Source: Ignavibacteriales bacterium
GTDB lineage: Bacteria > Bacteroidota > Ignavibacteria > Ignavibacteriales > SURF-24
NCBI GenBank assembly: GCA_036261625.1
Contig: DATAKL010000009.1
Span: forward strand, 1,990-65,989
Direction of reading: 5' to 3'
DNA: 64,000 nt
A program made the translations under genes and the position numbers. Below are positions 32,351 through 53,680 of the stretch, one piece after another; position 1 is the stretch's first letter, and every line of letters begins with the position of its first letter. A model generated the notes under the pieces. That model did not search any database, had not been told where the DNA came from, and worked only from the letters and a program-made list of their open reading frames with translations.

Positions 32351-32461
32351 TTCTTTCTAATTTTCCGGGCGGAACTTTAAGCCCGGATGCAATTTTCTTC
32401 TAAATTAAGTAACTTAAGTTAGTTCATCACAAAATACTAATAAAACTAATGAGACAGTTAT

Positions 32462-32749
32462 ATGAATCTGCATGAATTAAGACAGAAAAGGGATCGCATT
32501 TTGCAGATAGCCTCTCTTTACGGGGCAAGGGATCTGCGGATTTTTGGTTCCATTGCCCGAAACGAGCAGACTGAAAGCAGTGATGTGGACATTTTAGCAA
32601 AAATGGAAAAAGGGACGACCTTATTAAGGCATATTTCTCTGGTCCATGCACTTGAAGAAGAATTAGGGATAAAAGTAGATGTGGTTTCTGAAAATGCTAT
32701 TAAAGGCCGAATTAAAGAAAATATTATGCGTGAGGTAATTCAGCTTTGA
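32462..32749 (+). CDS. MNT-type nucleotidyltransferase antitoxin (copy 1)
   Basis: FGSIARNEQTESSDVDIL (GS..DxD minimal nucleotidyltransferase motif). 4-nt overlap with the HEPN gene. About 90 percent nt identity to 50388-50675 by eye. Confidence 0.9.
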   Translation: MNLHELRQKRDRILQIASLYGARDLRIFGSIARNEQTESSDVDILAKMEKGTTLLRHISLVHALEEELGIKVDVVSENAIKGRIKENIMREVIQL

Positions 32750-33087
32750 GAAATGATACTGAATGGCTGAAAGATATTTTAGATGAAATTGCGCTGATTG
32801 AAAAGTATTCAGTGAAAGGAGAACTAGCCTTCCAGAAGGATGAATTAATTCAGACATGGATGATTCACCACTTGCAGACAATTGGTGAAGCAGCCGGTAA
32901 ACTGTCTGAAAATCTAAAACAAAAATATCCCTCAATCCCCTGGAGAGACATCATCTCCATGCGTAACTTTATAGTGCATCAGTATTTTGGAGTTGACCTG
33001 GAGGAAATCTGGAATACTGTCACCCATGATATCCCGGTTCTGAAAAACAATCTCAATCAAGTCCTAAAGGATCCCGATAATTCTTAG
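32746..33087 (+). CDS. HEPN (DUF86/HepT-type) toxin
   Basis: Rx4-6H motif RNFIVHQY. 113 aa. TTG start overlapping the MNT stop. Confidence 0.85.
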   Translation: MRNDTEWLKDILDEIALIEKYSVKGELAFQKDELIQTWMIHHLQTIGEAAGKLSENLKQKYPSIPWRDIISMRNFIVHQYFGVDLEEIWNTVTHDIPVLKNNLNQVLKDPDNS

Positions 33088-33108
33088 TTGCGTATCCAAA
33101 CTAATCCC

Positions 33109-33159
33109 CGGAGCCGCGGTGGCCTGCCCGTCTTTGACGTGGCCGCGACATGTTCTGAT
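33109..33159. repeat. fragment of the GC-rich hairpin repeat family (copy R5)
   Basis: CGGAGCCGCGGT...CCGCGACATGTTCTGAT matches CGGAGCCGCGGTCAGCCGCGACATGTTCCGAT at 25673-25704. The loop is expanded from about 4 to about 23 nt. Confidence 0.65.
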
Positions 33160-33235
33160 GAGAAGAACCATTTCAGAATTACAATAAATTTGGCTAAATT
33201 CGCGGAAGTGTCTAATATTTAAAGTCATAAATCGT

Positions 33236-34873
33236 ATGAACAACATTACTGCAGCCATCTTATCTATTTTAAACCTTAAAAGATTCACCCGTAAACATAA
33301 GCTGGAAAAGCTAAGGTCTGCTTGGGGTCAGCCTCTTGATCGATTTCACAATTTCGATCTTATAAGGAATTATCATGAACTGGTCTGCACAGACTCTGGG
33401 GATGAATTTGTGGATGATAAAACCTGGTCGGACCTCAATCTTAACGATGTTTACTCCTTAATTGACAGGAATATCAGCGGCCCCGGCAGACAGTATCTTT
33501 ATCACCTGCTTCATAAGTATGAACTGAACGATGACAAACTTGACAGCCGGTTTAACCAGATAAAACTGTTCAAAGAAAACCAGGGAATAAGAGAAAAAAT
33601 ACAATTAGCCCTTCAGAGACTCAGCAGCGACGATACTTACTTTATAATCAGCCTTCTTCTTGGTGAAAAGCCCATAATTCCCAAATATCCCAGGCTGATT
33701 TATTTATCTTCGGCTCTTTCAATTCTTTCTATTCTGGCTGCATTTTACAACAGCACTTTCTTTTTTGCCGTATTGTTTATGGCGGTGCTAAACCTGATAA
33801 TAACTAAAATATATTCTTCCGGGATCTATGAATCCTTCATCGGATTTTCCAATCTAAATAAAATGATAGTTTCAGCAAATGAGCTTGCCGGCTTAGAGTC
33901 TGAAACAGCAATTGAACAGCTTTCTGTTCTTAAGAAACATTCCGGGGTCCTGAAAAAGCTGAATAAAAAAGTTTCCCACCTTGTAATTGATAAATCGCAG
34001 CTTGATACTTTTGCACAAACAGTTATAGAATACTTAAATATGTTCTGCCTGTTCGATCTGGTTGCATACACCAGATCCGTTATCGAATTGTACAAATACA
34101 AGAAAGAGCTTAAAGAGGTTTTTGATGCCGTGGCAAGTCTGGATGCACATATTTCAATTGCATCCTACTTTTGCAGCATCCCTTATTATTCAAAGCCTGA
34201 ATTTATTTCGGGGAACACAATATCCTTCGATGAGGTTTATCATCCATTGATTGATGAAGCGGTACCGAATTCTATAAGCGGGTTAAGCAGGTCGGCTTTG
34301 ATTACCGGGTCCAATATGGCCGGTAAAACCACATTTATTAAATGTATAGGTGTAAACACAATTCTTTCCCAAACACTCGGGTTTACTCTTTCCAGAAGAA
34401 CAGTAATTCCAAAGCTGATTGTCAAATCTTCAATAAAGATCGAAGACAGCATTGCAGATTCCAGGAGTTATTATTTTTCGGAAGTTGAAGAGATTAAAAA
34501 ACTTATCGGTCTGAGCAGAACGGAGAAGAAATATCTTTTTATAATAGATGAGATTTTCAGAGGGACCAATACAGTTGAAAGGCTTGGAATTTCCGCAGCC
34601 GTACTTAAGCAGTTAAACCATAACAACCTGGTGCTGGTTACGACACATGACATTGAGCTTCAGGACCTGCTGGATAACTCATTTTCCATGTATCACTTCA
34701 GTGAGCAGGTAGAAGGAGACAGATACTATTTTGATTTCAGGATAAAGGAAGGTCCCTGTTCCTCCGGCAATGCCATTAAGCTCCTGGAGCTGACAGGCTA
34801 CCCCGAGCAAGTCACTAATGAAGCAAAACAGATCAGCAATAGGATAATAAGCAAAGAAGGAGTAAATATCTAA
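33236..34873 (+). CDS. MutS-domain-V (ABC-like) ATPase with central transmembrane segment; lacks mismatch-binding domains
   Basis: Walker A GSNMAGKTTF, Walker B LFIIDEIFRGTN and TTHDIEL. Hydrophobic helices around aa 150-195 (IYLSSALSILSILAAFY..FFFAVLFMAVLNLIITKIY). No MutS domain I. Confidence 0.8.
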   Translation: MNNITAAILSILNLKRFTRKHKLEKLRSAWGQPLDRFHNFDLIRNYHELVCTDSGDEFVDDKTWSDLNLNDVYSLIDRNISGPGRQYLYHLLHKYELNDDKLDSRFNQIKLFKENQGIREKIQLALQRLSSDDTYFIISLLLGEKPIIPKYPRLIYLSSALSILSILAAFYNSTFFFAVLFMAVLNLIITKIYSSGIYESFIGFSNLNKMIVSANELAGLESETAIEQLSVLKKHSGVLKKLNKKVSHLVIDKSQLDTFAQTVIEYLNMFCLFDLVAYTRSVIELYKYKKELKEVFDAVASLDAHISIASYFCSIPYYSKPEFISGNTISFDEVYHPLIDEAVPNSISGLSRSALITGSNMAGKTTFIKCIGVNTILSQTLGFTLSRRTVIPKLIVKSSIKIEDSIADSRSYYFSEVEEIKKLIGLSRTEKKYLFIIDEIFRGTNTVERLGISAAVLKQLNHNNLVLVTTHDIELQDLLDNSFSMYHFSEQVEGDRYYFDFRIKEGPCSSGNAIKLLELTGYPEQVTNEAKQISNRIISKEGVNI

Positions 34874-34959
34874 ACATCTTCTAAGCAGTTATCCGGCTTC
34901 AGTCCGGAAGACTTTCGATTGTATTTCTTCATTTATCGGGCTGAGTTGAGCCCCTTGTT

Positions 34960-35748
34960 TTATTTAGAATCCATGAATACCACTTCATCGGCATTAAAAT
35001 ATTCGGGATCGAAATCATCTCCCGCCCATTCTTTCATCTCTTCATAATCCTCAGAATCCTCATTGCTTAAAGTATCGAGAAGTTCCTCGTAGCCCCAGGA
35101 ACCGCCGCAATCCTCAGGCGGGCAAGCCCTTTCACCGGCAAGGCAAACCGGGTAGGTAAGGTTTTCATCCCTTGGCAGGGATTTCTCAAACTTTATTGTA
35201 TGCTCCCAGCAATCCCCAAAATCGTACGTATATAATGCTTTCGAATTCAGCCTGGAGAAATAATTCGCAACTTTGTGTTTTTTCCCCTCAATTACCCCGG
35301 GAGCCATTTCATCTGGTATACCGATACTTACCTCAAGGCCTGTTTTCGGGTTCATTATCTTAAACTCATGCAGATGGTAATTAAGCCATCCCATTGCATC
35401 CTGAATTGCATTATGCAGCTGTTCGAAATTATAAGTTTCAGGCACCTGTATACGCCGCCATATCCTCGGCTTTACATCGTGGAGAGTGATTTTGAACTGA
35501 TAAACATTTTCAAACTGCTTTTTACTGCCCTTTTTACCGGCACCCTCAGTGTTCGCGACCTGTCCGGTGTTAGCTTTCGCCGTCTTGAACAGCCCTCCCG
35601 ATTCCTTCATTGCTTTCAGGGGAATAAGTCCTATACTGTCCTCGAGTTGAAATATTTCGAGCTCATCTCCCGGCTCCAGTTTCAGCTTTTTCCGTATCTC
35701 TTCGGGGATAACAACCTGATATTCCGGTAAGATTTTTACAATTGTCAT
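34960..35748 (-). CDS. AbrB/SpoVT-like N-terminal domain fused to a pRiA4b ORF-3-like (PRiA4_ORF3) domain
   Basis: N-terminus VVIPEEIRKKLKLEPGDELEIF (swapped-hairpin AbrB/MazE pattern). C-terminus YQFKITLHDVKPRIWRRIQVP ... CPPEDCGGSWGYEELL, typical of PF07929. Confidence 0.75.
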   Translation of the reverse strand: MTIVKILPEYQVVIPEEIRKKLKLEPGDELEIFQLEDSIGLIPLKAMKESGGLFKTAKANTGQVANTEGAGKKGSKKQFENVYQFKITLHDVKPRIWRRIQVPETYNFEQLHNAIQDAMGWLNYHLHEFKIMNPKTGLEVSIGIPDEMAPGVIEGKKHKVANYFSRLNSKALYTYDFGDCWEHTIKFEKSLPRDENLTYPVCLAGERACPPEDCGGSWGYEELLDTLSNEDSEDYEEMKEWAGDDFDPEYFNADEVVFMDSK

Positions 35749-36086
35749 CTTTCTCTCCCAATTTTATAAATAATATATCGATACTTCGGCCATAATTCAA
35801 TAAAGCAGCCGGGTTGAACTATAATTTAATATATCTTTAATTTAGCAAGTATGTAAGGAACAGATATTAAAAGGAAACAGATTATACGATTTTCCAGCTT
35901 TTTTATGGATTTTTATTCTTTTTTTATGTGCGTTTCCTAAAAACAAACGCAACTTTTCAGAGGAAGCTGCAATGCCGGCATTTGCCGGCAGATTTAAGGC
36001 ACAAAGTGACAATATCTTTAATGTTAAGATATTCCAGATAAGGGAACTCAATTCTGCCTAATCTCCAAAAATATTTTTACTTTGCA

Positions 36087-36113
36087 GCAACATTTTTCTT
36101 TTGCCGGCGTCTA
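36087..36113 (+). promoter_or_regulatory. putative ECF-type promoter (AAC-N16-CGTCTA)
   Basis: GCAAC (36087-36091), a 16-nt spacer, then CGTCTA (36108-36113), ~50 nt upstream of the sigma gene. A parallel arrangement occurs at 39434-39460. Confidence 0.35.
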
Positions 36114-36163
36114 TAATATAAACAATCGGAAAGGACTTGACCAATACTCAACCTGAAGGCAGA

Positions 36164-36652
36164 ATGGAATTTAAGTTTTATTATGCAAAACATAAGTCCA
36201 AATTGTACTTTTATGTATTCAGAATGCTGAATGATAAGATGCTTACCGATGACATTGTGCAGAATGTGTTTATTAAACTTTATGAGAATATGGATAATAT
36301 TAATAACCGGGAATTTATAGCATCATGGATCTATAAAACTGCAAGAAATAAGGTTTATAGCTTTTTAAGGCATAAAAAAAGAAAAGCCGAGGAGCTGATT
36401 GACGACGAAGAGCCGCTATACTCTGAAACGCTGACGGATGAAATGGATAATGTTGAGTTGAGGGAAATGATTATGTCGGCACTTGAAACTATCCCTGAAG
36501 AGCAAAGGGAAGCTTACCTGCTGAAAGAATATTCAGGCTTCAGCTATAAAGAGATAGCATCTCTTCAGGACATTGATGAAGAATTGGTCAAAAGCCGCCT
36601 TTTCCACGCAAGAAAGAAACTGATAGCTAAAATAGCCAAGGTCATTTTATAA
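36164..36652 (+). CDS. ECF (group 4) sigma-70 factor
   Basis: Region 2 (DDIVQNVFIKLYEN..WIYKTARNKVYSFLR) and region 4 (AYLLKEYSGFSYKEIASL..VKSRLFHARKKL). ATG 36164 preferred to TTG 36137. Confidence 0.85.
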   Translation: MEFKFYYAKHKSKLYFYVFRMLNDKMLTDDIVQNVFIKLYENMDNINNREFIASWIYKTARNKVYSFLRHKKRKAEELIDDEEPLYSETLTDEMDNVELREMIMSALETIPEEQREAYLLKEYSGFSYKEIASLQDIDEELVKSRLFHARKKLIAKIAKVIL

Positions 36653-36668
36653 TAAAAGGAATGATCAT

Positions 36669-37136
36669 ATGAAATGCGAAGAAATTCAAGAATTGATAAG
36701 CCAATTTAGTGACGGCTCTCTGGAAACAGAAAAAGAGGCCTTCATATTTGCACATATGTCGGTGTGCCCCGGGTGCAGGACATTCTTAAAATCTATTAAC
36801 ACGCTTAGCTTTTCAGCTCAGAGAGAAGAATTCTATTTCCCTCCTGAACTGGACAAGAAGGTCATCAGCAAAACCGAAAAGAGGAAAGCGAAAAAGCACG
36901 TAAACATTCTTACCATGAAATATCCGGCATATGTTTCCTTTTCATTCGGAGCAGTTGTGATATTATTGCTCTTCCTGCTTTTTAAGTCAACAACAGAATA
37001 CAGGCAGGAGCTTCATGAAGCCATGGAAAACATGCAGCAGCAGAATAAGCAGATTCAGACTATACTGAACAGCTACCCTGAAATTCAGGTTCGGCCTAAA
37101 CAGGTAAATGAAATATTCGTTAACAGAAAATTGTGA
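36669..37136 (+). CDS. anti-sigma factor (zf-HC2 type, single TM)
   Basis: N-terminal H..C..C motif (HMSVCPGCRTFL) and a TM helix YVSFSFGAVVILLLFLLF. Follows the sigma gene. Confidence 0.65.
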   Translation: MKCEEIQELISQFSDGSLETEKEAFIFAHMSVCPGCRTFLKSINTLSFSAQREEFYFPPELDKKVISKTEKRKAKKHVNILTMKYPAYVSFSFGAVVILLLFLLFKSTTEYRQELHEAMENMQQQNKQIQTILNSYPEIQVRPKQVNEIFVNRKL

Positions 37137-37145
37137 GGCAGTGAA

Positions 37146-38114
37146 ATGAAATCCAGATACAGATATTTTATTGCAATCAGCATCATTGTGCTGGTATTTA
37201 TTATCGGATTGGCTGCGGGTTTCTTTATAAATAAGCGCCCTAATTTTATATCCTCCTCAATTAAACAGCATGAAGTTTACAACACTTCTGATTGGGCAAT
37301 ATCATATTACTCCATTTCGGTGCCTCAGGATTATTATGATACAAGGTTCGTAAACAAATCAGCTCAGATCAATATGGGAGACAAGAAGTTCCTTGATATA
37401 ATAGGTAAATCCATACCCGTTAAAACAGTTTTTGACAACTGCGGAGAAGGCACGCACCAATTCAATTTTATTTTCCAGATTGATAAGAATGGAAATGCGA
37501 TCGATTGCAATATCCGCAAGATCATTAATACAACCAAAGGCGGGGGTGTTAGAAATGCAGATTACTTAATTCAGGGCAAAGCACTAATTAATAATCTTGC
37601 CGCAAAATATCAGCCCGGAGTTTACAGTGGGAAAATTGTTAACAGCCTTATGATAAAAGATCTGGCGATCTATGTGGATAAGAACGGAAACTCCAGGGCA
37701 GGGTGGAACTTTTCTGAAACTTTGCCCGGAATATCCATGGCACCATACAACTATGCACTAAAAAGCCCGCGTGGCCCCCGTCAAAGAAGAGAACTTGAAG
37801 AATACAAATCTTCAGCTGATAAAATGCCCGAGTATCCCGGTGGGACACAGGCCATGGCAAAGTTTATCGAAAGGAACATCATTTACCCGGAAGCGGCAAA
37901 ACAGGCAGGCGTTGAAGGGAAAGTTATTGTGGAAGTATATATTGATGAAATCGGCAGGGTCGCTTACGCAAAAATATTAAAAGGCATTGGCGGCGGATGC
38001 GAAGCAGAAGCCGAGAGAGTATTGGGTCTCTTGAAAAACTTTCGGCCAGGAATTGAAAATGGGGTGCCGGTAAAAACCAAAATAGTTATTCCTTTCAACT
38101 TCAACATTGGATAA
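37146..38114 (+). CDS. membrane-anchored protein with C-terminal TonB_C domain
   Basis: N-terminal TM. C-terminus MPEYPGGTQAMAKFIERNIIYPEAAKQAGVEGKVIVEVYIDEIGRV is the TonB C-terminal fold pattern. No Pro-rich TonB linker seen. Confidence 0.75.
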   Translation: MKSRYRYFIAISIIVLVFIIGLAAGFFINKRPNFISSSIKQHEVYNTSDWAISYYSISVPQDYYDTRFVNKSAQINMGDKKFLDIIGKSIPVKTVFDNCGEGTHQFNFIFQIDKNGNAIDCNIRKIINTTKGGGVRNADYLIQGKALINNLAAKYQPGVYSGKIVNSLMIKDLAIYVDKNGNSRAGWNFSETLPGISMAPYNYALKSPRGPRQRRELEEYKSSADKMPEYPGGTQAMAKFIERNIIYPEAAKQAGVEGKVIVEVYIDEIGRVAYAKILKGIGGGCEAEAERVLGLLKNFRPGIENGVPVKTKIVIPFNFNIG

Positions 38115-38308
38115 ATTCAAGTTTCCCTAATTTCCTTTGCAGGAAACATGAAGCATCAGGAAACAGTTGGAGTAAGTGGCAGTCCTTTAGAGTTGCAATT
38201 ACAGTTGGACAATGAAAACTTATAATTTTATATTGCAAACTATTATACAGAAATCTATTTGAAATCTACTTAATCAGCTTTTACTTTTCGTTTTAGCAAG
38301 GAATTTGA

Positions 38309-39202
38309 ATGATGAAATTCGGTGGAAGAGTATCTGTTTTCTTTCTGAGTATTTTTGTTTTTGCATCCAATATTTTTGGAGAAAGCGACTCATTAAAAAC
38401 TAATTATTCAAAATCCCCAGCTATCGATATTACGTCTATCAGGGACGATTTTGATAAAACTCTTATTAATGAAGGCTATAAGAACTATTCTGTATTTATC
38501 TTGCCCTCGGGCACTTATTGCAAATCCATTTATCTTGCAATAAATCCCTCCTTAGAAGTTTTGGATATAAAAGTGATCGCAATCTTCAGTGAGGGCTTTG
38601 ATATGAGTCAGGAGCCCTTAAAAGCAATGAATGATTCTTTATATATAGGGAAAGTAGGATTAAGCAGCAGGAATGGTTTCCCTGTTGAACCTATCAGCAT
38701 CGTATTTGACCGAAAGAATAACAGCATATTTTATAAATGCAGCAATCCATCCGGGAAGAATGAGCCATACTACTTTAAGAGGGAGAACATAGGAAGTTAT
38801 TTTCCCTTCAAAAGAATGAATACCTGTGACGGCAAAGATATTGAGATTACAAGAGACAAAATATTCATATTCAACTGGTGGGAAACGGGCTGTGTACCAT
38901 GCAGGGTAGAAATTCCCGGTTTGAATAAACTGGTGGAGAAATATAAAGGCAATGACAGCGTTGTTTTTATTTCAGTGATTCACGACAATAACAATTTAAA
39001 GAAGTTCCTGTCCGGGAATAGATTCGACTACATTCACTGCTTTTCAGATAAAGATATTACAGATTACTTTGGCATTAGATATCCAAGAAATATCATCGTA
39101 AACCATGAAGGTAAAGTGATTTATGATGAAGTTGGGGCAATAGCCAATAAATACATTGAACTTGAAAAAGTAATCGACCAGGCTATCAGCATTAAGAAGT
39201 AG
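38309..39202 (+). CDS. secreted protein with C-terminal TlpA-like thioredoxin-fold domain
   Basis: Signal peptide. WWETGCVPCRVEIPGLNKL (CxxC) within a ~130-aa thioredoxin-like C-terminal domain. The N-terminal ~165 aa are unassigned. Confidence 0.65.
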   Translation: MMKFGGRVSVFFLSIFVFASNIFGESDSLKTNYSKSPAIDITSIRDDFDKTLINEGYKNYSVFILPSGTYCKSIYLAINPSLEVLDIKVIAIFSEGFDMSQEPLKAMNDSLYIGKVGLSSRNGFPVEPISIVFDRKNNSIFYKCSNPSGKNEPYYFKRENIGSYFPFKRMNTCDGKDIEITRDKIFIFNWWETGCVPCRVEIPGLNKLVEKYKGNDSVVFISVIHDNNNLKKFLSGNRFDYIHCFSDKDITDYFGIRYPRNIIVNHEGKVIYDEVGAIANKYIELEKVIDQAISIKK

Positions 39203-39433
39203 AAATAAAAACTGTAACTGGTATAAAATGCACATTCAATTCGCAGCGAATTCAATTATCTTGTTCCCTGAGGCAGGAGCCAAAGTAACTTAAATAATTG
39301 TAAATCTTTGCGAACAGGCCTTCTCTATAGAACATATACCTGTAGATAATATCTGGAGTGGGTCACAGTTCAGCTTCTTTTTGCCCAATCTCCAACACTA
39401 TTTTGTCTCGCAGAAAAATCTTTTATGCTTCGT

Positions 39434-39460
39434 GTAATTTTTTCATCTTTCATTCGTCTA
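39434..39460 (+). promoter_or_regulatory. putative ECF-type promoter (AAT-N16-CGTCTA)
   Basis: GTAAT (39434-39438), a 16-nt spacer, then CGTCTA (39455-39460). The upstream block 39382-39425 resembles 36055-36100. Confidence 0.3.
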
Positions 39461-39485
39461 TTTATTAACAACAAATAATTACTCT

Positions 39486-39974
39486 TTGAATAATACTTTA
39501 GTTCATATCCCATCAGAAAAATTATATAAAATGTATTCTGATGATATTTTAAGATATTCTTTTAGCATCCTAAGAGATTATGAGGAAGCTAAGGATATGG
39601 TGCAGGAAGTATTTATCCGGCATTTTGAAAACGAACAGTCATTTAAGGGAGCCTGCAGTTATAAAACGTGGCTCCTGATCATTACCCGGAATCTCTTTTA
39701 CTCTAAAATCAAAAGCAAAAGCTTTACAAATGAAAGAGTTGACGAAGAACTTAATGATTCTGTTTTTGAAGTAAACTATGAAATTAATATTTCTATAAAA
39801 GATGCGTTAATGAAAATCCCCTCTGAATATAGTGAATTGTTATATCTGAAAGAAGCAGAGGGCTATTCGTATGAGGAAATATCTCAAATTACAGAAACCT
39901 CACTGGATAACGTGGCCGTCAGATTACACAGAGCAAAGAAGATGCTAAGGAAAATATTAAAAGACCGGTATTAA
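39486..39974 (+). CDS. ECF (group 4) sigma-70 factor (second copy, distant paralog)
   Basis: Region 2 (KDMVQEVFIRHFEN..WLLIITRNLFYSKI) and region 4 (LLYLKEAEGYSYEEISQI..VAVRLHRAKKML). TTG start; the start site is uncertain. Confidence 0.8.
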   Translation: MNNTLVHIPSEKLYKMYSDDILRYSFSILRDYEEAKDMVQEVFIRHFENEQSFKGACSYKTWLLIITRNLFYSKIKSKSFTNERVDEELNDSVFEVNYEINISIKDALMKIPSEYSELLYLKEAEGYSYEEISQITETSLDNVAVRLHRAKKMLRKILKDRY

Positions 39975-39975
39975 T

Positions 39976-40704: not shown

Positions 40705-40722
40705 TTTCAAGGGTAACTTAAA

Positions 40723-41337: not shown

Positions 41338-41450
41338 TGATCACTGCTCGTCCCGATTAAAAGTCCCGGGGTGTACAACATGAAATCAGCTCATATCAGG
41401 CTTGCACCCCTAAACTTTAGAATTTATCACAAATTTGTACGCTTTAAAGC

Positions 41451-41502: not shown

Positions 41503-41503
41503 A

Positions 41504-41530
41504 AACCCTGAGATTTTCTCAGGGTTTTTT
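41504..41530 (+). terminator. canonical intrinsic terminator directly after repeat copy A
   Basis: AACCCTGAG-atttt-CTCAGGGTT followed by TTTTCTTTTT. Confidence 0.75.
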
Positions 41531-41844: not shown

Positions 41845-41963
41845 ATTATAAAGTCCGGCAGAGCCTCCTGCTGTTGCCCTGAAAGCTTTCTGAGTGCAGA
41901 TCCCCTATTGATATTATGGCCTCAAGAGCCGTTTTCTCACCATTGCCTCAGATGGCACCGGCT

Positions 41964-42572: not shown

Positions 42573-42585
42573 AAATATTCAGTCC

Positions 42586-44011
42586 GGTAATGTCTTTATC
42601 TTTGTGTAAAAAATAAAAAGAAGGAGGTGCCGCTCCAGTTTATTAAATTTGAATTGCAAAAAACAAAATTTAGTAAAAAAGGAGACAGCACCATGAGCAC
42701 AAAGTTAAATGCATCTAGTCAAAAAAACAAATTATTTGAAGAAATGTTAGAGCTGGAAGGAGGAGGCGGCCTCTTCCGGGAATTCTTTAAGCGAGGAATG
42801 GAAAAGCTCCTTCAGGAAAGCCTTGAAGGAGAGGTAACGGACTTCCTTGGCCGCAGCTGGTATGAGCACAACCCGGAGGGGAAAAGAAAAGGCTACCGTA
42901 ACGGATACTATGACCGGCAGGTAAAAACAAGCGAGGGTCTCCTGGAACTTAGGCAGCCTAGAGTACGGGACACCGATGAAGAGTTTAGAAGCAGGATCCT
43001 GGAAAGGCTTGACAGCCTGGAGGACAACCTCAAGTACCTCTCCCGTGAGATGTACATTAGGGGCCTCTCAACCCGTGACATAGAGGATACCTTTAGAGAT
43101 GATAGCGGAGAGGCACTTTTGTCCAAGAGCTCCGTAAGCCGCCTAAACTCTGAAATGATAAAGGAATATGAGGAGTTTACCTGCCGTGACCTCTCGGAAC
43201 TGGATGTGGTTTATCTCTTTATTGACGGGGTTTATGAGGCTGTTCGCAGGTTTACGGGTAATAGGGCCTTGCTCTGTGCCTGGGGCATATTGTCTGACGG
43301 GACAAAGCGCTTAATCCATGTAGCGGCAGTTGAAAGTGAGAGTAAGGCATCCTGGGAGGTGTTCTTTGAGGATATGACGAGCCGTGGCATGAGGCATCCA
43401 CTGCTCGTTGTAAGTGACGGGGGTAAAGGGGCAGGTGCTGCCATAGTAAAAAGCTTCCCCAAGGCTGACCGGCAGAGATGCTTGGCCCACAAGCTCAGGA
43501 ACATTGCCTCAAAGCTTCCAAGGGACCGCCAGGCTGAGGTGCTTGCAGCTATAAAAGGGATCTATTATGCCTCTGATTACGAGGCTGCAAAGGTCCTGGC
43601 TTCTGATTTCATTGACAAGAATATTGACAACTACCCCTCTGCAGTCAAGTGCTTCAGTGAGGATCTGGATGCCTGCCTGGTCAATCTCAATTATCCCATG
43701 AGTCACAGGAAGTTCATTCGCACTACAAACCTCTTAGAAAGGGCATTTGAGGAAGAGAAAAGAAGGACCAAGGTGTTCCCCCAGCATGCAAGTGAGAAGG
43801 CCCTTACGGGTCTTGTCTTCTCTGTCCTTTACAGGGCATCACAGAACTGGAAGAGAATTGGGATGAGGGATGATGAACTGAAAATACTGAAGAACATCAG
43901 GAAACTGATGACTAATGAAGAATCAACCGGAGACTATATTTCATATAGACTGGCAGCGTAGAGCCTCCTATGAAAAATATTTTTACACAATAAAAAAGAC
44001 TTGACCACTGG
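42586..44011 (+). mobile_element. IS256-family insertion sequence (~1.43 kb) with 9-bp target duplication
   Basis: ATTCAGTCC occurs at 42577-42585 and 44012-44020. Imperfect terminal inverted repeats: GTCTTTATCTTTGTGTAAAAA near the left end vs the reverse complement of TTTTTACACAATAAAAAAGAC near the right end. Single transposase ORF. Boundaries uncertain by about 6 bp. Confidence 0.8.
42693..43961 (+). CDS. IS256-family (Mutator-type) transposase
   Basis: 422 aa from the ATG with AGGAGA upstream. Motifs DGVY, VVSDGGKG and RQRCLAHKLRNI are typical of Transposase_mut. Confidence 0.9.
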   Translation: MSTKLNASSQKNKLFEEMLELEGGGGLFREFFKRGMEKLLQESLEGEVTDFLGRSWYEHNPEGKRKGYRNGYYDRQVKTSEGLLELRQPRVRDTDEEFRSRILERLDSLEDNLKYLSREMYIRGLSTRDIEDTFRDDSGEALLSKSSVSRLNSEMIKEYEEFTCRDLSELDVVYLFIDGVYEAVRRFTGNRALLCAWGILSDGTKRLIHVAAVESESKASWEVFFEDMTSRGMRHPLLVVSDGGKGAGAAIVKSFPKADRQRCLAHKLRNIASKLPRDRQAEVLAAIKGIYYASDYEAAKVLASDFIDKNIDNYPSAVKCFSEDLDACLVNLNYPMSHRKFIRTTNLLERAFEEEKRRTKVFPQHASEKALTGLVFSVLYRASQNWKRIGMRDDELKILKNIRKLMTNEESTGDYISYRLAA

Positions 44012-44878
44012 ATTCAGTCCTTTTATTTTGGAGTACTTTATACTATGAGTCAGCCTCTTATGTACCCGTAAAATCAGCCTGAAAACATAAATTTCAGGCA
44101 AATCTTTCGGTTACATTTACTTTTGAGGCAACGAATCATTTTTCATACCCTCATGGTTACATTATTTATGAGTCAATTCGTTCAACTCGATATTTAATTT
44201 ATTACTTGACAGCAAGAAACAATATAGTTATTTTAAGCTTAAAAGCATTAAGAAAGACACCTATAGTAGGTATTAAGAATTTATTGGCCAATTGCAGATA
44301 CTATTTCATTTATTCCATTCCCAAAAATAATTCATATCAAAAGTATTTTTGTTCGCCTTAACGTCGGCAAATAAATTTCCCTTTAATAAGTAAAATAGAA
44401 CTAATCAAAACAAAGTCTAAATAAGTATCTGCAAAGATGAATACTATTACTCCGGTATTAACTTTAATAATAAAGCATTTCCCGAGGGCGTTCTTTCTTA
44501 TCGGTAACATTTATAAGAGCGCATATTCAAGGAATCAGATGGGACCCAAGTTAAAAATCATTATAAGCTTTGAAAAGAAGTCTTAAGCATATTTGCAGTT
44601 TTGGTATTATACTCAGTCTCATTTGTATAGGGAAAGCAGTTATAATCCTTAATCGAATGAAACACAAAGCAATTAGAGTTTTCATTGTGGTCATATTCTT
44701 AAGGTCCTTTCATTAGGTCGAATACAAAAAAATAGCTTTATTCACCAAAAATATTGATAACTCAGAATAGTCAAATCTTATTTTCAGTTCTGAAATGTTT
44801 ACAGGTGTTTCCATTCAGTAATGTGGGTTCTTACTAAATGTGAGTTTATTTTTGAATCCCTCTTAAAAAATAACAGTT

Positions 44879-46216
44879 ATGAAAAAAAAGCTGATTCACC
44901 TGATACTATTATTCCCCATGTTTTTCGGCTGTGAATCCTCCACAATGCCTCCGGCAAGTCTGCCATTCACCATATCGGCTGAGAAGGTGTCCTGCAAGGA
45001 TGCATGGCTTAAAATCTCCTTATGTAACGTTTCTCTTCCCAAGCTGCTGTTTATGAGGTCGAGTGACTCTGACGGTTATAATGTACATCATATTTCGACA
45101 AAAGACACGATGTTCCACTTCAAAGGGCTTATTCCAGGCAAGGAATATACATATTGGTTTTATGTAAGTGATAATCAAGCCCTGTCTAAAGATGATTTGA
45201 AAAATACAAGCAACATCCTGACTATAAGGACGTTGGATACAACAAGCTATTATTTCACCTGGAAGGTGGACTCCATCGGGACCACACAAAGCCTTTTGAA
45301 CGGCATCTGGGGCAGCAGCAGCAATGATGTATGGGCTGTTGGAAGATTCTACAATGGGCATTATCCGACTTCATATATAGCACATTACAACGGTTATGGC
45401 TGGACACAGAATTATTCCCCCCTTTTTACCACAGGTATCCAGGGTGGCAATCTTAATGGAATATATGGCCTTTCCAAGGATAAGATGTGGGTTGTTGGAG
45501 AAGGTCTCTCTACAATTCCACTTGAAAAAAGAGATACAACCTGGGCATTCGCCGCATACTGGAATAAAGACAAGTGGGTGGATATCTCGCCCAAATTCTT
45601 TAATGTTCGTCTGTGGGCAGTCTGGGCATATGATGAATACAATGTGTGGGCAGTCGACCTTTCGGGATCAATCCTTTATTATGACGGTAAGAACTGGACG
45701 GAGCAGTATAATAATCCCGGCTATATGCTCTACGACATCCATGGTACAGATCCAAAACATTTATATGCTGCAGGGGCTGATAACAGCTACTCAAGAGGGA
45801 TTCTCCTGAAGTTTAACGGTACAGGCTGGCAAAGGGTTCCGACATCATTTTATGATGCTCATGGTCCCTTCCATTCAGTATGGGTGGAATCGGAAAAGAC
45901 GGTCTGGGTTGCAGGTATAGGCATGATACTCCATGGTGATGGAGCTGATAGTGATGACTGGGAAGCCCAATGGGTAAATTACGGGCTTCGAAAAATAAGG
46001 GGACTCTCAGGAAACGATATCCTTACCGGCGGATACAATGGCGCAATTGGGCATTTTAACGGAAATACGCTGAAAATAAATATGGATATATATGCGGACC
46101 AGCAGGAGTTCTATGTCAATGATATTCTTGCTTTCAAAGACAAGGTGTTCTTTGCAGGGCAGGGAGGAACAGGTTTTATAAACAGAAAAGGCGTAGTCTT
46201 TATTGGAACGAGATAA
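44879..46216 (+). CDS. lipoprotein with N-terminal Fn3-like domain and beta-propeller-like repeats
   Basis: Signal peptide ending FFGC. Repeated ~45-aa units carrying L.G(I/V)WG....(V/M)W(A/V)VG (e.g. LNGIWGSSSNDVWAVG, LNGIYGLSKDKMWVVG, VWAYDEYNVWAVD, VWVESEKTVWVAG). Confidence 0.65.
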   Translation: MKKKLIHLILLFPMFFGCESSTMPPASLPFTISAEKVSCKDAWLKISLCNVSLPKLLFMRSSDSDGYNVHHISTKDTMFHFKGLIPGKEYTYWFYVSDNQALSKDDLKNTSNILTIRTLDTTSYYFTWKVDSIGTTQSLLNGIWGSSSNDVWAVGRFYNGHYPTSYIAHYNGYGWTQNYSPLFTTGIQGGNLNGIYGLSKDKMWVVGEGLSTIPLEKRDTTWAFAAYWNKDKWVDISPKFFNVRLWAVWAYDEYNVWAVDLSGSILYYDGKNWTEQYNNPGYMLYDIHGTDPKHLYAAGADNSYSRGILLKFNGTGWQRVPTSFYDAHGPFHSVWVESEKTVWVAGIGMILHGDGADSDDWEAQWVNYGLRKIRGLSGNDILTGGYNGAIGHFNGNTLKINMDIYADQQEFYVNDILAFKDKVFFAGQGGTGFINRKGVVFIGTR

Positions 46217-46276
46217 CCTAGGGTGAATAATCAGTTCTAAATAAATTATTCATTTCTCAAAAACCAAAGGTGTATC

Positions 46277-49200
46277 ATGAAACGTTTCATCTCTGTACTC
46301 ATGTTTGCTTTTTCGGTTATATTCAGCATTCAGAATGCCTCTTTATTCGGCAATGAAACTCCCAAAGTGAAAGTTTTTTTTGACATGCTGAATAGTTACA
46401 CCAGCGCTGCTGTTTATGAAGTAAAAAATGAAGCAGCGCCACCTCCTGGGGATAAAGTTTTGTGGGAATTAAAACCTTCTACTTATAAGGGAGCAATCAG
46501 ATATTCTTATGATGGTAAGGATTATTGGGAATGGGATTATTATGGCAGTTCAAGGTATCGAGTTGGTACAGGGGATTTTTATGGCGGAACAATAACAGGA
46601 GAAATAGCAAGATCGTTTTACCAATGGATGCTTCCGGAAACTGATATTCCTGCTGATGCCGAAATAACTAGTGTAAAATTAGAGTTCACATTATATCAAT
46701 ACCCTCCAACTTCAAACCCTCAATTAGTAAATCTTTATAAAGTAACTGGGTTAAATTTATTGAGTGCTGAGAATACTTGGAAATCAATAAATTCGGAATC
46801 GGGAGGTATTCTATTAACTAATACTCCAATTTCTGTATCAGGCTCATTCCTTACTGTCGATATTACGCCAAATACTCCATATTTTGACACCTTTGTTAGC
46901 GAACTAAAGAAAAGCCTTGCTTCATATCATTCTTTTACTTTAGGAATTATTTCTGCAAATGAAAGTGACCAAAATAAGTTTATTATTATTGATGTCGCCT
47001 CACAATATTCTAAATTAACGATAACATTTAATTCACCAACAAGACAGCTTACTGCCCGAAATCAATTGGGGACAGAGGATACACAATATAATCAGGGGGA
47101 AATAGCTATTGATAATGTTTGGCAAAATTCCCCATTCTCCATTTCAGCAAAGTGGAGCACCACACACATGGTTGAGGCTCCTCAAAAGGTGGAAGATAAC
47201 AATAAGGATGATTGGAAATTTACTAATTGGGTAGGAGGTCCAACTTCCTATAGTCAATCAGTTAAACTGATGAGCAATACTACACTTACTACAAACTTCA
47301 CTCAACTATATAAACTTACAGTTAAAAATAATTTGGAGGGAATAGGGGAACAGGAAATAATGCTCAATGGAGGAAAAGTTATCTCTGGACATACCGAAAC
47401 TGATATTGTCTCTGGCACACAATATAATATTTCAGCCTTTGAGATTCTTACAAGGGAAGATGGCGAAGATTATCAATTTAGCATTTGGAGTGACGGGGTA
47501 ACCACGGCTGCGCATCCACCCATAACAATTAATTCTACAGAAACTCTTACGGCCTATTATAAGCATAGCAAATATAGCGGCACTTCTACTGCCTTCAGCA
47601 ACTCCAGTCAGAGAAAGATAGTCCGGACCCCCAACGGCAGCCTGCACCTGGTATATGAAAGCATGGGGAAGGTGTGGTATGAAATGAGTACGGATAACGG
47701 CGTAAGCTGGAGGCTTATGAACGGGGGCAAACCCCTGGTAAGTGAGGATGCAAAACTCCCTTCAATTGAAGCCTATGACATCGATTCAAGAATATTCATA
47801 ACATTTCAGAAGAAACTCGAAAATGGCTTTCCTCCCGACTCATATTTAATTGAGCTTATGGTATATAATGTTGACGGTGACAGTCCGCAGGACATACTTG
47901 ATGCCTGGCAGTCAGCCCCATACAGCTATAATGCAAATCCTGTTGTGGCCTTTGATTTTAACCAGTATGTATCCGACAGGGTTGCAGTGGCTTTTCAGGA
48001 TAATTCAAGCTCTGCTCCCGGAATACTTTACCGGCTGGCAGGTCTTAACAGCACAAATTTACATTACGAGTGGAAGAACAGTGCCGCAAGAATAAACGGA
48101 ACTGACGAAAATTCGGTTAATCCGTCAATAAAATCCATATATTACAGCGCAAACATTTCCAAGTATAACACCGATCAAAAATTCCACATCGCCTTTGAGC
48201 AGCAGGGCAACGGGAGTTCAGTTAATTACTCATTACTGAATATAAACCGGTCGGGTGCAGCTTCTGTTTCAGCTCCTGTTGACATTTCTTCCGACATATT
48301 TCCTACCTCCACAGATGAGAACGAGAAGCCCCTTGTTACGGTTGTAAACGGAGTGCCTTACATAAGCTGGCTTCATTACAGCGACTGGACCTACCTGCAT
48401 GAAGCAGCATTGGCAAGAAGTACCTCGGGCTCATGGGACTTATTCGATACTTACGGAAAAGAAGACGACATTACCTCAGTGCATATGAATAATGTGGGAC
48501 AGAATGACTTTGTACTTGCCTGGAATGTCGACGGCTATGGAAACGAGTTCGTTCGAAGCACCTCGATGTCAACCCCCTATTTTACAAATACCTCCGGGCG
48601 TGACTTACAGGTTGCAAACGGATCTGACTTCACGAATACGAGACTCATCTCATTTATGACTGATGCAGTTCCATATTATTTCACCACATCAAATCCCATG
48701 TCAACAGGGACTCTGGCCAAGGTAACTCTTTCCAAAGAAACAGATGGACAGAATACCTCCAAAACACTAGAAAGCCGTACAGGAATAATAAAGATCAATG
48801 ATGCCTCTTTTAGGGCAACTCTAGGGGAAATAAAGGCAGGAGACAGTTATGTCAAGTTCAGAGATATAGAGAATGATTTCACGACTGAAAAAGAAACCTT
48901 CCCTTATGCACTCGAATCCAAGGAATTTAACACCTCAGATAAGACCGTACTTAGCTATACCTCAGAATTCACAATGAATGATTCAGTTAAGATGTCTTCA
49001 ATTTTCCCGAAGGATCTTGAATCTTTGACTTTTTCTCTAGAGTTAGTTGACGCAAAAAGCAATGAGCTCCTAAAAAGGCTCAGTTCCAGAAAATTTAACT
49101 CTAACTCCATTTCCATGGGGAAACCTCAGGCCTTTAGGCTTGACTTAAATGGAATAGGAAGCCGCACCGTTAAGCTCAGGATTTCATATGACATGAAGAC

Positions 49201-49573
49201 AAAAGATTCCGTAAAGGTTGAATATAAACTCCTGAACTACTATAAGCCTGAAGGCAAAATAAAGAAAGGCAGTTATGTTGACCTCTCATTCAGTGAAGTA
49301 AAACCTGTAACGGAATACGGCTTAAGCCAGAATTATCCTAATCCATTCAATCCTACAACAGTCATAAACTACCAGATCCCGAAGGCATCCAAAGTTATGC
49401 TAAAAGTCTATGACATGCTGGGTAAAGAAGTCATAACTCTTGTGAACGAATACAAGGAGCAGGGAAGGTATTCTGTTCAATTCAATGCCTCAAACCTCCC
49501 GAGCGGGACATATATCTATGAGATCCGTGCCAATGACTTCGTCAAGAGCGGCAAGATGATGCTTTTGAAATGA
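46277..49573 (+). CDS. 1098-aa secreted protein with BNR-like motif and T9SS C-terminal sorting domain
   Basis: Signal peptide. STDNGVSW (BNR/Asp-box). C-terminal Por_Secre_tail pattern LSQNYPNPFNPTTVINYQIP...GTYIYEIRANDFVKSGKMMLLK. Confidence 0.85.
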   Translation: MKRFISVLMFAFSVIFSIQNASLFGNETPKVKVFFDMLNSYTSAAVYEVKNEAAPPPGDKVLWELKPSTYKGAIRYSYDGKDYWEWDYYGSSRYRVGTGDFYGGTITGEIARSFYQWMLPETDIPADAEITSVKLEFTLYQYPPTSNPQLVNLYKVTGLNLLSAENTWKSINSESGGILLTNTPISVSGSFLTVDITPNTPYFDTFVSELKKSLASYHSFTLGIISANESDQNKFIIIDVASQYSKLTITFNSPTRQLTARNQLGTEDTQYNQGEIAIDNVWQNSPFSISAKWSTTHMVEAPQKVEDNNKDDWKFTNWVGGPTSYSQSVKLMSNTTLTTNFTQLYKLTVKNNLEGIGEQEIMLNGGKVISGHTETDIVSGTQYNISAFEILTREDGEDYQFSIWSDGVTTAAHPPITINSTETLTAYYKHSKYSGTSTAFSNSSQRKIVRTPNGSLHLVYESMGKVWYEMSTDNGVSWRLMNGGKPLVSEDAKLPSIEAYDIDSRIFITFQKKLENGFPPDSYLIELMVYNVDGDSPQDILDAWQSAPYSYNANPVVAFDFNQYVSDRVAVAFQDNSSSAPGILYRLAGLNSTNLHYEWKNSAARINGTDENSVNPSIKSIYYSANISKYNTDQKFHIAFEQQGNGSSVNYSLLNINRSGAASVSAPVDISSDIFPTSTDENEKPLVTVVNGVPYISWLHYSDWTYLHEAALARSTSGSWDLFDTYGKEDDITSVHMNNVGQNDFVLAWNVDGYGNEFVRSTSMSTPYFTNTSGRDLQVANGSDFTNTRLISFMTDAVPYYFTTSNPMSTGTLAKVTLSKETDGQNTSKTLESRTGIIKINDASFRATLGEIKAGDSYVKFRDIENDFTTEKETFPYALESKEFNTSDKTVLSYTSEFTMNDSVKMSSIFPKDLESLTFSLELVDAKSNELLKRLSSRKFNSNSISMGKPQAFRLDLNGIGSRTVKLRISYDMKTKDSVKVEYKLLNYYKPEGKIKKGSYVDLSFSEVKPVTEYGLSQNYPNPFNPTTVINYQIPKASKVMLKVYDMLGKEVITLVNEYKEQGRYSVQFNASNLPSGTYIYEIRANDFVKSGKMMLLK

Positions 49574-49598
49574 CCTGCTCAGGATAATTTGATTGTAG

Positions 49599-49626
49599 GG
49601 CAGAGGCTTTTAACAGGGCTTCTGCC
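49599..49626 (+). terminator. hairpin after the T9SS cargo gene, preceded by GTAG
   Basis: GGCAGAGGC-loop-GCTTCTGCC (9 bp with one G-U) followed by TTTAT. Context TTGTAGGGCAGAGGC. Confidence 0.6.
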
Positions 49627-49680
49627 TTTATATTAAGTTTAATTTCAGCTTCTTAGCGGAATTAACCACACGATTATACT

Positions 49681-49742
49681 GCTTAAAATCCTCAAATGTC
49701 ATAAAACAGGTTATAATTGATTTTCAGTTTGCGGAGCGAATA
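49681..49742 (+). repeat. ~55-60 bp direct repeat, copy B
   Basis: GCTTAAAATCCTCAAATGTCATAAAACAGGTTATAATTGATTTTCAGTTTGCGGAGCGAATA. Partner of 41451-41502. Confidence 0.7.
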
Positions 49743-49819
49743 TTTAACTTCTGAAAAGCACACCAGTTGAATGAAAGGTTATATTCAATTATATTGAAAC
49801 TGAGAAAGGAGACTCTAAA

Positions 49820-50056
49820 ATGGCGAATGAACAATCAGGTTCTAATCCTCTTGAGAATATAAAGAATTTAAGTGTTGCTGAGCGGATACTCATTGTAGAA
49901 GAGATCTGGGACAGCATCTTAAATTCAAACGAGGAATTCCCGCTGTCTGATGAACAGAAAAATGAATTGGATAAACGTTTAGAAGCCCATGGTAAAAATC
50001 CAAACGAGGTAAAACCCTGGAGTGAAGTCAGAGACAATATCAGAAAAAAACTATGA
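49820..50056 (+). CDS. putative addiction-module antitoxin (TIGR02574/Unstab_antitox-like)
   Basis: LSVAERILIVEEIWDSI motif. 78 aa. 4-nt overlap (ATGA) with the downstream toxin gene. Confidence 0.7.
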   Translation: MANEQSGSNPLENIKNLSVAERILIVEEIWDSILNSNEEFPLSDEQKNELDKRLEAHGKNPNEVKPWSEVRDNIRKKL

Positions 50057-50352
50057 ATTATAAGGTGTTGTTTCGGGCTGAAGCTGAAGAGGAACTCCTT
50101 GAGGCTGTTGGCTGGTATGAAGACAGAATGAAAGGATTAGGATCAGCCTTTCTTTTAAGTATTGAAGCCGCAATTGATTCAATTTCCCGCAATCCCGAAT
50201 CCTATCCCAAAATCTATAAAAATATAAGACGTGCCCTGATTAGAAGATTTCCCTTTGGAATTTGTTATTTTGTTGAAAAAAACCGCGTCATAGTGCTTGC
50301 TGTTTTCCATGTACATAGAAATCCTAAAGAATGGAAAAAACGAATATCGTAA
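50053..50352 (+). CDS. RelE/ParE-family toxin
   Basis: 99 aa. A..E..EA..WY pattern at the N-terminus and RFPFGICYFVEKNRVIVLAVFHVHRNP at the C-terminus, typical of ParE_toxin. Confidence 0.7.
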   Translation: MNYKVLFRAEAEEELLEAVGWYEDRMKGLGSAFLLSIEAAIDSISRNPESYPKIYKNIRRALIRRFPFGICYFVEKNRVIVLAVFHVHRNPKEWKKRIS

Positions 50353-50387
50353 AATCAATTTGTTAATAACACTACTGAGACAATTAT

Positions 50388-50675
50388 ATGAATCTGCTTG
50401 AATTAAGACAGAAAAGGGATCGCATTTTGCAGATAGCATCTCTTTATGGGGCAAAGGATTTGCGGATTTTTGGTTCTATTGCCCGAAACGAGCAGACTGA
50501 AAGCAGTGATGTGGACATTTTAGCAAAAATGGAAAAAGGGACAACCTTGTTAAAGCATATTTCCCTGGTTCATGCACTTGAAGAGGAATTGGGAGTAAAA
50601 GTAGATGTAGTTTCTGAAAGTACTATTAAAGGCAGAATTAAAGAAAATATTTTGCATGAGGCAGTTAAGCTTTGA
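50388..50675 (+). CDS. MNT-type nucleotidyltransferase antitoxin (copy 2, orphan)
   Basis: 84/95 aa identical to copy 1 by eye, and about half of the nt differences are synonymous. Only a few-nt stub of the HEPN partner follows (TTGAGAAATGA..). Confidence 0.85.
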   Translation: MNLLELRQKRDRILQIASLYGAKDLRIFGSIARNEQTESSDVDILAKMEKGTTLLKHISLVHALEEELGVKVDVVSESTIKGRIKENILHEAVKL

Positions 50676-50784
50676 GAAATGACTAGCCTTGGAATTAAAT
50701 GTATTTTCGTAGGTGAAATGCTGCACTTGTAATTTAATTTCATAAACCATAAGTTTTAATACCAACAATTCAGGATTCTGGAAT

Positions 50785-53676: not shown

Positions 53677-53680
53677 CTTC

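Follow-up and report, generated by a model that had tools for sequence, protein, structure and literature searches.

Two sister copies of a HepT/MntA antitoxin gene in a variable gene slot of an Ignavibacteriales bacterium

The DNA analysed here, in the following called the window, is a stretch of 64,000 nucleotides (nt) of contig DATAKL010000009.1 from an Ignavibacteriales bacterium (assembly GCA_036261625.1), a metagenome-assembled genome (MAG) of the poorly sampled lineage Ignavibacteria/Ignavibacteriales. Between the gene of a membrane protein of 168 amino acids (aa), mem168, and a gene pair coding for an RskA-type anti-sigma factor and an extracytoplasmic function (ECF) sigma factor, the window contains a slot of variable gene content in which two copies of an MntA-type nucleotidyltransferase antitoxin gene, MNT1 and MNT2, are found in direct orientation (Table 1). 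An earlier note on this DNA had described two direct repeats of ~315 bp with ~90% identity and had proposed that they bracket an accessory island. By alignment we could show that the repeats are real: both copies align over 322 nt without gaps and with 30 mismatches, corresponding to 90.7% identity, and the longest perfect tracts are 65 nt (starting at position 32552) and 39 nt (starting at position 32473). These repeats are the top and the sole long direct-repeat family in the window. Outside of the repeat edges the identity of 20-nt blocks drops at once to the background of 20–40%. The extent is as described before, from ~25 nt before the MNT start codon past the stop codon and into the first four codons of the overlapping gene of the toxin HepT. 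The reported difference between the copies was also found, as an intact gene for a HepT of 113 aa follows the left copy and the HepT frame of the right copy reads MRND-stop. A search for a HepT remnant to the right of MNT2 gave no significant match (local alignment score 23, shuffle mean 18.5, shuffle maximum 26).

The Logan contigs of SRR13766244, which are an independent assembly, reproduce both outer junctions, mem168-to-MNT1 and MNT2-to-hyp146-lepB, with copy-specific single nucleotide polymorphisms. One of these contigs ends at window position 32502 (L001) and the other starts at position 50513 (L002), which are the exact k=31 branch points of the 39-nt and the 65-nt tract. Thus, the reads contain both copies, and the duplication is not confined to the MAG. 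Exact-protein look-ups retrieved only short contigs of SRR13766244, each in two samples, and for MNT1 and MNT2, where alternative contexts were sought, they gave no record.

The genes of MNT1 and HepT form a neighbouring PF01909/PF01934 pair with an overlap of 4 nt. [quoted passage not shown] The first motif is present in the translations of MNT1 and MNT2 as G29-S30-(IARNEQTESS)-D41-V42-D43, and the second is present in HepT as RNFIVHQY within SMRNFIVHQYFG of the translation. Judged by its genes and motifs, MNT1-HepT is a complete type VII TA cassette which resembles Class I (Yao et al. 2020, PMC7641770) in the overlapping gene pair and in both motifs, and it is predicted to act in the same way, through polyadenylylation of the HepT tyrosine by MntA. 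The MNT homologs that we could trace (L036–L038) are each followed by a 113-aa HepT and lie in unrelated genomic contexts, which argues that the MNT-HepT subfamily is a mobile two-gene cassette. HepT itself is 84–85% identical at the nt level to HepT of L036 and L037.

MNT2 is not adjoined by a HEPN gene and therefore does not form such a neighbouring pair. It differs from the type VII systems in being an orphan with an intact motif that has neither an adjacent HEPN gene nor a cassette promoter and is located behind the toxin gene parE, starting 35 nt downstream of it (ParE stop at 50352, MNT2 ATG at 50388). Its closest database homolog is MNT1 (88% aa identity), followed by proteins with 84–87% aa identity from other MAGs. 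When the cassettes are aligned, MNT1-HepT has ~65 nt of upstream sequence as well as HepT in common with the foreign cassettes, whereas the similarity of MNT2 is confined to the open reading frame (ORF) with ~25 nt in front of it and 11 nt behind it. That MNT1 and MNT2 are sisters is seen from 22 shared derived sites and from an nt identity of 91.7%, compared with 84–86.5% to the outgroups. Both ORFs are intact and differ in 13 codons by synonymous and in 11 codons by nonsynonymous changes. Given the 13 synonymous differences we consider the copies to be old paralogs. Unique changes number 12 in MNT2, mostly towards the C-terminus, and five in MNT1. MNT2 thus is an internal fragment of a sister copy of the cassette, devoid of the cassette promoter and of HepT. 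As the ends of the MNT2 homology match the truncation of the cassette, the repeat edges are best explained as truncation points of the fragment and not as attachment (att) or recombination sites. From its position, MNT2 is probably co-transcribed with the antitoxin-ParE operon, and it may be able to adenylylate HepT in trans. Promoter and terminator scans around both MNT copies gave counts which did not exceed those of shuffled sequences.

Informative relatives were obtained from two sources: four from the contigs of mem168 homologs, and a distant fifth (L045) from a further scan. A scan of the GTDB species representatives with PspC yielded a single syntenic relative (L003), the other 24 matches being unrelated PspC-domain proteins, and the best representative has 64% identity in PspC. 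A scan of JGI metagenomes with mem168 gave no match; a second scan, with the ECF sigma factor, gave 80 loci, of which L044–L046 alone were related enough to be used. The closest relatives are L028–L031 with ~91–92% aa identity in PspC and mem168. L003 carries the label "Acidobacteriota bacterium MAG223", yet its valS (94% aa identity over 70 aa), PspC and mem168 (83%) match Ignavibacteria contigs, and the label is probably a binning or taxonomy error of that MAG.

By comparison with these relatives mem168 and RskA/ECF are the conserved anchors of the slot. In L032/L033 the left side is syntenic over the genes of a radical-SAM protein, a metallophosphatase and an ATP-grasp protein, valS (93% aa), PspC and mem168, and the right side over RskA, ECF, a TPR-redoxin gene and three further genes. 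The right anchor has aa identities of 84% (ECF) and 54% (RskA) to L032 and of 82% to L044. The slot content is different each time. In L032/L033 it is made up of unrelated genes over only 2 kb, coding for DUF3788, a WYL regulator and a Zn-ribbon protein, and in L028–L031 of a 163-aa gene, a redoxin gene, an AbrB-PRiA4 gene and a BNR protein gene, followed by hyp146. L034 and L003 have an Unstab_antitox gene directly after mem168; in L034 it is followed by ParE, and the slot of L003 contains the antitoxin, a DUF3108-like gene and an AbiE pair. L045, the distant relative, has nothing between its anti-sigma/ECF pair and a gene which resembles mem168 in size and orientation and is 29% identical to it (E=1e-12).

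All relatives lose DNA homology at window positions 32341–32366. The homology resumes at ~49767–49781 in L034 and L003, at 50719 in L028 and at 52529 in L032, but never at the right repeat. MNT2, hyp146 and lepB therefore lie inside of the variable slot. L034 and L003 lack a nested segment of 17.4 kb whose right end is located ~600 nt before the right repeat and whose junctions, in the alignment with these two relatives, show no target duplication and no att-like repeat. MNT was not found at the slot site in any of the relatives examined, and the empty site which the earlier note had predicted, PspC-membrane protein-MNT-lepB, was likewise seen in none of those compared. The island proposed in that note is thus accessory, as stated there; it was also found to be absent from relatives and to deviate in composition (see below), so that the finding it had named as speaking against an island, an interval syntenic in all relatives and free of a compositional shift, was not obtained. 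However, the repeats are not its borders; by synteny with L032 the variable region spans 32351–52479.

The interval between the repeats had been suspected to be more AT-rich than its surroundings, and this is the case (GC content 0.3925 versus 0.451 to the left and 0.471 to the right). The value for the whole slot is 0.394. The mean GC content at third codon positions (GC3) is 0.405 in the slot and 0.510 in the flanks (Mann–Whitney P=6.6e-7), and the tetranucleotide correlation with the backbone falls to 0.72–0.88 in the slot. GC3 drops exactly at MNT1 (0.35 versus 0.52 in the preceding gene), stays low through MNT2, hyp146 (0.42) and lepB (0.39) and recovers only at RskA (0.49). The compositional deviation thus extends beyond the right repeat to ~52.3 kb. 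Within the slot the GC content of the individual genes ranges from 0.325 to 0.479, for example 0.325–0.351 in the second ECF sigma/anti-sigma pair, 0.444 in AbrB-PRiA4 and 0.479 in the insertion sequence (IS) of the IS256 family.

Table 1. Location of the genes and other features of the slot and its flanks (window positions).
Feature	Position	Strand	Basis or remark
valS	28218–30839		precedes PspC and mem168
PspC	31012–31854		between valS and mem168
Left anchor, conserved 168-aa membrane protein (mem168)	31844–32350	+	80–92% aa in L003, L028, L032, L034
Whole variable slot, 20.1 kb, 21 genes, between mem168 and RskA/ECF	32351–52479		L032/L033 synteny; composition
Nested indel, 17.4 kb which L034 and L003 lack	~32362–49766		fine alignment
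Left repeat copy (MNT1 gene, ~25 nt upstream, first 4 HepT codons)	32436–32757	+	90.7% to 50362–50683, gap-free
MNT1, MntA-type nucleotidyltransferase antitoxin, 95 aa	32462–32749	+	Pfam PF01909 2.3e-11; cassette-type upstream region as in L036–L038
HepT toxin, 113 aa, TTG start overlapping MNT1 stop	32746–33087	+	Pfam PF01934 1.3e-26
MutS domain V ATPase, 545 aa, weak domain III	33236–34873	+	directly after the HepT/MntA cassette
AbrB/MazE-PRiA4_ORF3 fusion gene and upstream region	34958–35959	-	common to L028 at 84.5% nt
Two ECF sigma/zf-HC2 anti-sigma modules with TonB_C, redoxin, 204-aa protein	36137–41337	+	lowest GC content of the slot (0.33–0.41)
Redoxin-family gene	38184–39205	+	L028 87.1% nt (backbone 87.8%)
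202-aa ORF without family match (Pfam/NCBIfam)	41964–42572	-	transposase N-terminal likeness by eye only
IS256-family insertion sequence, ~1.43 kb	42586–44011	+	NCBIfam NF033543 295.4 bits (cut-off 150); PF00872 4.1e-74
Unstab_antitox (78 aa)-ParE (99 aa) TA pair	49820–50352	+	Pfam; L034 10543–11068 = window 49781–50306, 77.6% (blastn)
Right repeat copy (MNT2 gene, cassette fragment)	50362–50683	+	alignment to left copy
MNT2, orphan antitoxin paralog, 95 aa, no HepT partner	50388–50675	+	88% aa / 91.7% nt to MNT1
Semi-conserved pair of the secreted protein hyp146, without family, and signal peptidase I (lepB)	50785–52255	+	GC3 0.42/0.39
Right anchor, convergent gene pair of an ECF sigma factor (196 aa) and an RskA-type anti-sigma factor (398 aa)	52480–54271	-	Pfam

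The flanks of the proposed island had been taken as core-like. valS and PspC are kept in relatives, but lepB is not a stable core flank: it has a low GC3 like the island, is absent from this position in L032 and has its closest homologs in other contexts. For the protein family of lepB there are thousands of homologs in Ignavibacteria. Homologs with 79–80% identity adjoin other ECF clusters (L039, L042), in one case with hyp146 nearby, and a 71% identical homolog in L043 is part of a lepA-lepB-lepB operon. The pair hyp146-lepB is missing at the slot position in L032, and in L028 hyp146 follows the BNR gene. Thus, hyp146-lepB is a semi-conserved pair which is not fixed at the backbone position of the slot and is unreliable as a core flank. 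In L043, a related Ignavibacteria contig, a tandem pair of genes for the canonical signal peptidase I is located directly downstream of lepA (10001–11925), which suggests that the lepB of the window is possibly an additional paralog. An orthology of the ECF cluster next to lepB in L039 and L042 to the first genes of the window was considered as well and is not supported by tblastn.

The genes listed earlier for the interval between the copies could be confirmed with Pfam and NCBIfam, among them a GIY-YIG gene, with the exception of a pair of cargo proteins of the type IX secretion system (T9SS): the sorting domain is present in the 1098-aa protein only, and the neighbouring 445-aa protein has no family match. 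The ATPase directly after the cassette stays far under the equivalog cut-offs for MutS1 and MutS2 (120 versus 480 bits and 81 versus 400 bits) and is a MutS-related ATPase. The gene at 34960–35748 on the minus strand codes for an AbrB/MazE-type DNA-binding domain fused to PRiA4_ORF3 (220.8 bits) and has 84% aa identity to its counterpart in L028. The antitoxin gene at 49820–50056 (PF09720, 58.6 bits, gathering cut-off 23.3) overlaps the ParE gene at 50053–50352 (PF05016, 30.8 bits, gathering cut-off 23). Both together constitute a type II TA pair of the ParE/RelE type with PF09720 and PF05016, and the pair is kept in L034.

The cargo genes differ in age. With respect to L028 the nt identity is 87.1% for the redoxin gene and 84.5% for AbrB-PRiA4 at a backbone identity of 87.8%; with respect to L034 it is 77.6% for antitoxin-ParE at a backbone identity of 75–81%. 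As this cargo is about as diverged as the backbone, AbrB-PRiA4, the redoxin gene and antitoxin-ParE have been in the slot since before the lineages split. In contrast, MNT1-HepT, the MutS-like ATPase, the ECF modules and the T9SS protein are specific for the window among the relatives. The mixed ages of the cargo, a target duplication of its own for the IS256 element and the varied GC content together argue that the slot was built up in several steps and not as one unit.

L028 offers two further observations. The upstream region of AbrB-PRiA4 is doubled there (2104–2219 and 4385–4487, corresponding to 35857–35972 in the window) and surrounds the redoxin/AbrB-PRiA4 pair. Compared with the window the order of redoxin and AbrB-PRiA4 is swapped, and the genes of ECF1, its anti-sigma factor and TonB_C are absent. 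This arrangement points to local rearrangement in the slot.

Regarding mobility functions, the slot ORFs scanned with Pfam and NCBIfam, of 78 aa and longer, did not contain an integrase or recombinase domain; the only mobility gene is the DDE transposase of the IS256 element. Members of the IS256 family are expected to generate a target-site duplication of 8–9 bp. The element in the slot agrees with this family in its transposase, which scores above the equivalog cut-off, in its length, in its imperfect terminal inverted repeats of 27 nt (42586–42612 and 43980–44006, 81% complementary) and in a 9-bp target duplication, ATTCAGTCC, at 42577–42585 and 44012–44020. Since it has its own inverted repeats and duplication, it represents a separate insertion. 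The element is a passenger of the slot; a single copy is unable to form a composite transposon which could explain an island. The 202-aa ORF in front of it is a possible IS remnant. Islands of the integrase type, whose att repeats commonly correspond to the 3′ end of a tRNA or tmRNA gene, share with the slot the low-GC accessory DNA flanked by direct repeats. However, the slot is lacking an integrase, no tRNA or tmRNA gene is present in the window, and instead of short identical att sites there are diverged gene paralogs of 322 nt whose positions do not match the presence/absence boundaries and which no relative keeps at the site. Annotation with PADLOC gave a match for MNT only, to the candidate family PDC-S09, and none for the other genes, among them those of the MutS-like ATPase, AbrB-PRiA4 and GIY-YIG. 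A reading of the slot as a defence island was dropped accordingly. No Rfam family was found between 30 and 54 kb.

Taken together, we consider it likely that genes have been gained and lost for a long time in the mem168–RskA/ECF interval of this Ignavibacteriales lineage, which would thus be a hotspot of gene turnover; it now holds one complete HepT/MntA cassette together with a truncated sister copy. Such hotspots, located between core genes and fed by horizontal gene transfer, occur in many bacteria, and many of them do not contain recognisable mobile elements (Oliveira, Touchon, Cury & Rocha 2017, PMC5635113). The slot resembles these hotspots as it lies between conserved genes, has a different content in every relative and carries no recognisable self-mobile element, and recombination in the conserved genes on both sides could plausibly drive its turnover. 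The boundary genes are near-adjacent in L032/L033 and L045, and five differing slot contents are found. The formal definition of a hotspot differs from our comparison in that it is based on the pan-genome of a species and a count of transfer events, whereas we compare five relatives at or above species-level divergence. According to our proposal the slot would have grown to 20.1 kb through separate events which brought in TA cassettes, ECF modules, secreted and T9SS proteins, the IS256 element and probably an older IS remnant, and would have done so without dedicated integration machinery. The 322-nt repeat would then be explained by the presence in the slot of two sister copies of a single mobile cassette: the left copy complete with promoter region, MNT1 and HepT, the right copy having kept the antitoxin ORF and the ribosome-binding region only. 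The order of these events can only be suggested.

Several points weigh against this proposal. The informative relatives are only five in number and all are at species level or further (12–25% nt divergence of the backbone); none of them being a strain-level genome, a recent deletion or insertion polymorphism mediated by the MNT copies within the species is possible. The contig of L034, JAAXKR010000064, ends inside of ParE, and an MNT gene following ParE there would lie outside of the view. In addition, only ~75 nt separate the left repeat edge (32436) from the left border of the variable region, and the 65-nt perfect tract exceeds what is expected for random placement of the mismatches (permutation P=0.027), a hint of sequence exchange between the MNT copies. 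Finally, the ParE-to-MNT2 junction is provided by the MAG contig alone.

The obvious alternative is the one proposed before, a single island of 18.2 kb which ends in the MNT genes and whose gain or loss, in one piece, is brought about by homologous recombination between them. The repeat with its two perfect tracts is real, the GC content is low across the interval, and the proximity of the left repeat to the left synteny break as well as the weak mismatch clustering would also fit. Nevertheless, we regard this alternative as improbable. None of the right breaks falls into 50362–50683, the low GC3 runs on through hyp146 and lepB, and the predicted empty site is missing among the relatives. Some of the cargo is common to relatives at backbone-like divergence and was hence not acquired with the rest, the copies differ at 13 synonymous codons, and the ends of the repeat fall where a TA cassette is truncated.

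A related question is whether the copies nevertheless recombine in our proposed hotspot. The minimal processing segment for recombination is usually ~25–30 nt, and a divergence of ~9% strongly depresses the frequency of homologous recombination. Thus, recombination between the MNT copies is physically possible via the 65-nt and 39-nt perfect tracts, but nothing shows that it occurs. RecA-dependent recombination could occasionally delete the DNA between 32.4 and 50.4 kb, leaving one hybrid MNT and removing HepT. Such a deletion would be tolerated since the toxin is removed and a hybrid antitoxin is left. The TA literature has the concept that orphan or chromosomal antitoxins can serve as anti-addiction modules, and MNT2 could be likened to them, as a solitary antitoxin closely related to a complete module might neutralise the toxin in trans and make the loss of the module harmless. 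Carrying this further, MNT2 would not be debris but retained and expressed in the antitoxin-ParE operon, would act in trans on HepT, at a distance of 18 kb, to neutralise it and would exchange sequence with MNT1 by gene conversion, to which the 65-nt perfect tract would be due, giving the cell a toxin-safe route to shed most of the slot. We think it quite improbable that all of this applies; if true, it would amount to a "loaded/unloaded" switch for a hotspot based on a TA cassette.

The direct repeats of one gene around foreign-looking DNA also look like the product of a single crossover. In such a Campbell-type integration a circular MNT-HepT element would have recombined with a resident MNT gene, leaving two hybrid copies at the flanks, and it is clear that MNT-HepT cassettes of this subfamily move from genome to genome. 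This mode of insertion would require a resident mem168-MNT-hyp146 site, which is seen in no relative. It would furthermore make antitoxin-ParE a part of the incoming DNA, yet the antitoxin follows mem168 directly in L034 and L003 at backbone-like divergence. The copies are ~8% diverged including the 13 synonymous changes, and the Pfam and NCBIfam scans did not detect replication, conjugation or integrase genes in the interval. We therefore hold a Campbell-type origin to be highly improbable. That the contig was mis-joined at the repeat during assembly is hardly credible: the source is a MAG and the short-read Logan contigs do break inside of the repeat, but these independent contigs give both outer junctions with copy-specific differences and break exactly at k=31, cassettes elsewhere have a matching junction of MNT1 and HepT, there is synteny with L032 in both outer flanks, AbrB-PRiA4, the redoxin gene and hyp146 occupy the same slot in L028, and repeats of 91% identity with perfect tracts of at most 65 nt can be resolved by standard assemblers.

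For annotation it follows that direct repeats around low-GC DNA should not be taken as island borders before the synteny breakpoints have been checked. The slot between valS-PspC-mem168 and RskA-ECF is hereby documented in poorly sampled Ignavibacteriales MAGs and might be of use as a marker locus when strain variation is studied. Beyond annotation its importance is little, as it would be an ordinary hotspot of horizontal gene transfer.

Other repeated sequences were observed in addition. An intergenic element of ~120 nt recurs in the variable slots of two genomes, at 41418–41539 and 49659–49723 in the window and at 3366–3486 in L003. It has a conserved core, TCATAAAACAGGTTCTGATTAATTTCAGTTTGCAGAGC, which in the two full copies is followed by a terminator-like hairpin. 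The copy at 49659 comprises the 5′ part only and ends ~45 nt (49724–49766) before the right edge of the 17.4-kb indel. A role of this element as cassette boundary or small RNA was considered and rejected, as there was neither a viral nor an Rfam match, the consensus fold is weak and lacks compensatory pairs, and there are only three copies.

GC-rich, partly palindromic REP-like repeats are located in intergenic regions of the backbone (161–194, 16664–16931, 25572–25910 and 52300–52434). None was detected inside of the slot, and the last copy, between lepB and RskA, lies at the right edge of the slot. These repeats were not retained as island borders, as a suspected copy after HepT (~33.1 kb) was not significant by blastn-short. 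Finally, an intergenic gap of ~750 nt between ORFs ending at 7057 and starting at 7809 contains, at 7133–7690, dense direct and inverted repeats of ~45–96 nt with the core CTACAAATAGGTAGCCGCTAAAGCGGATAG and its complement.

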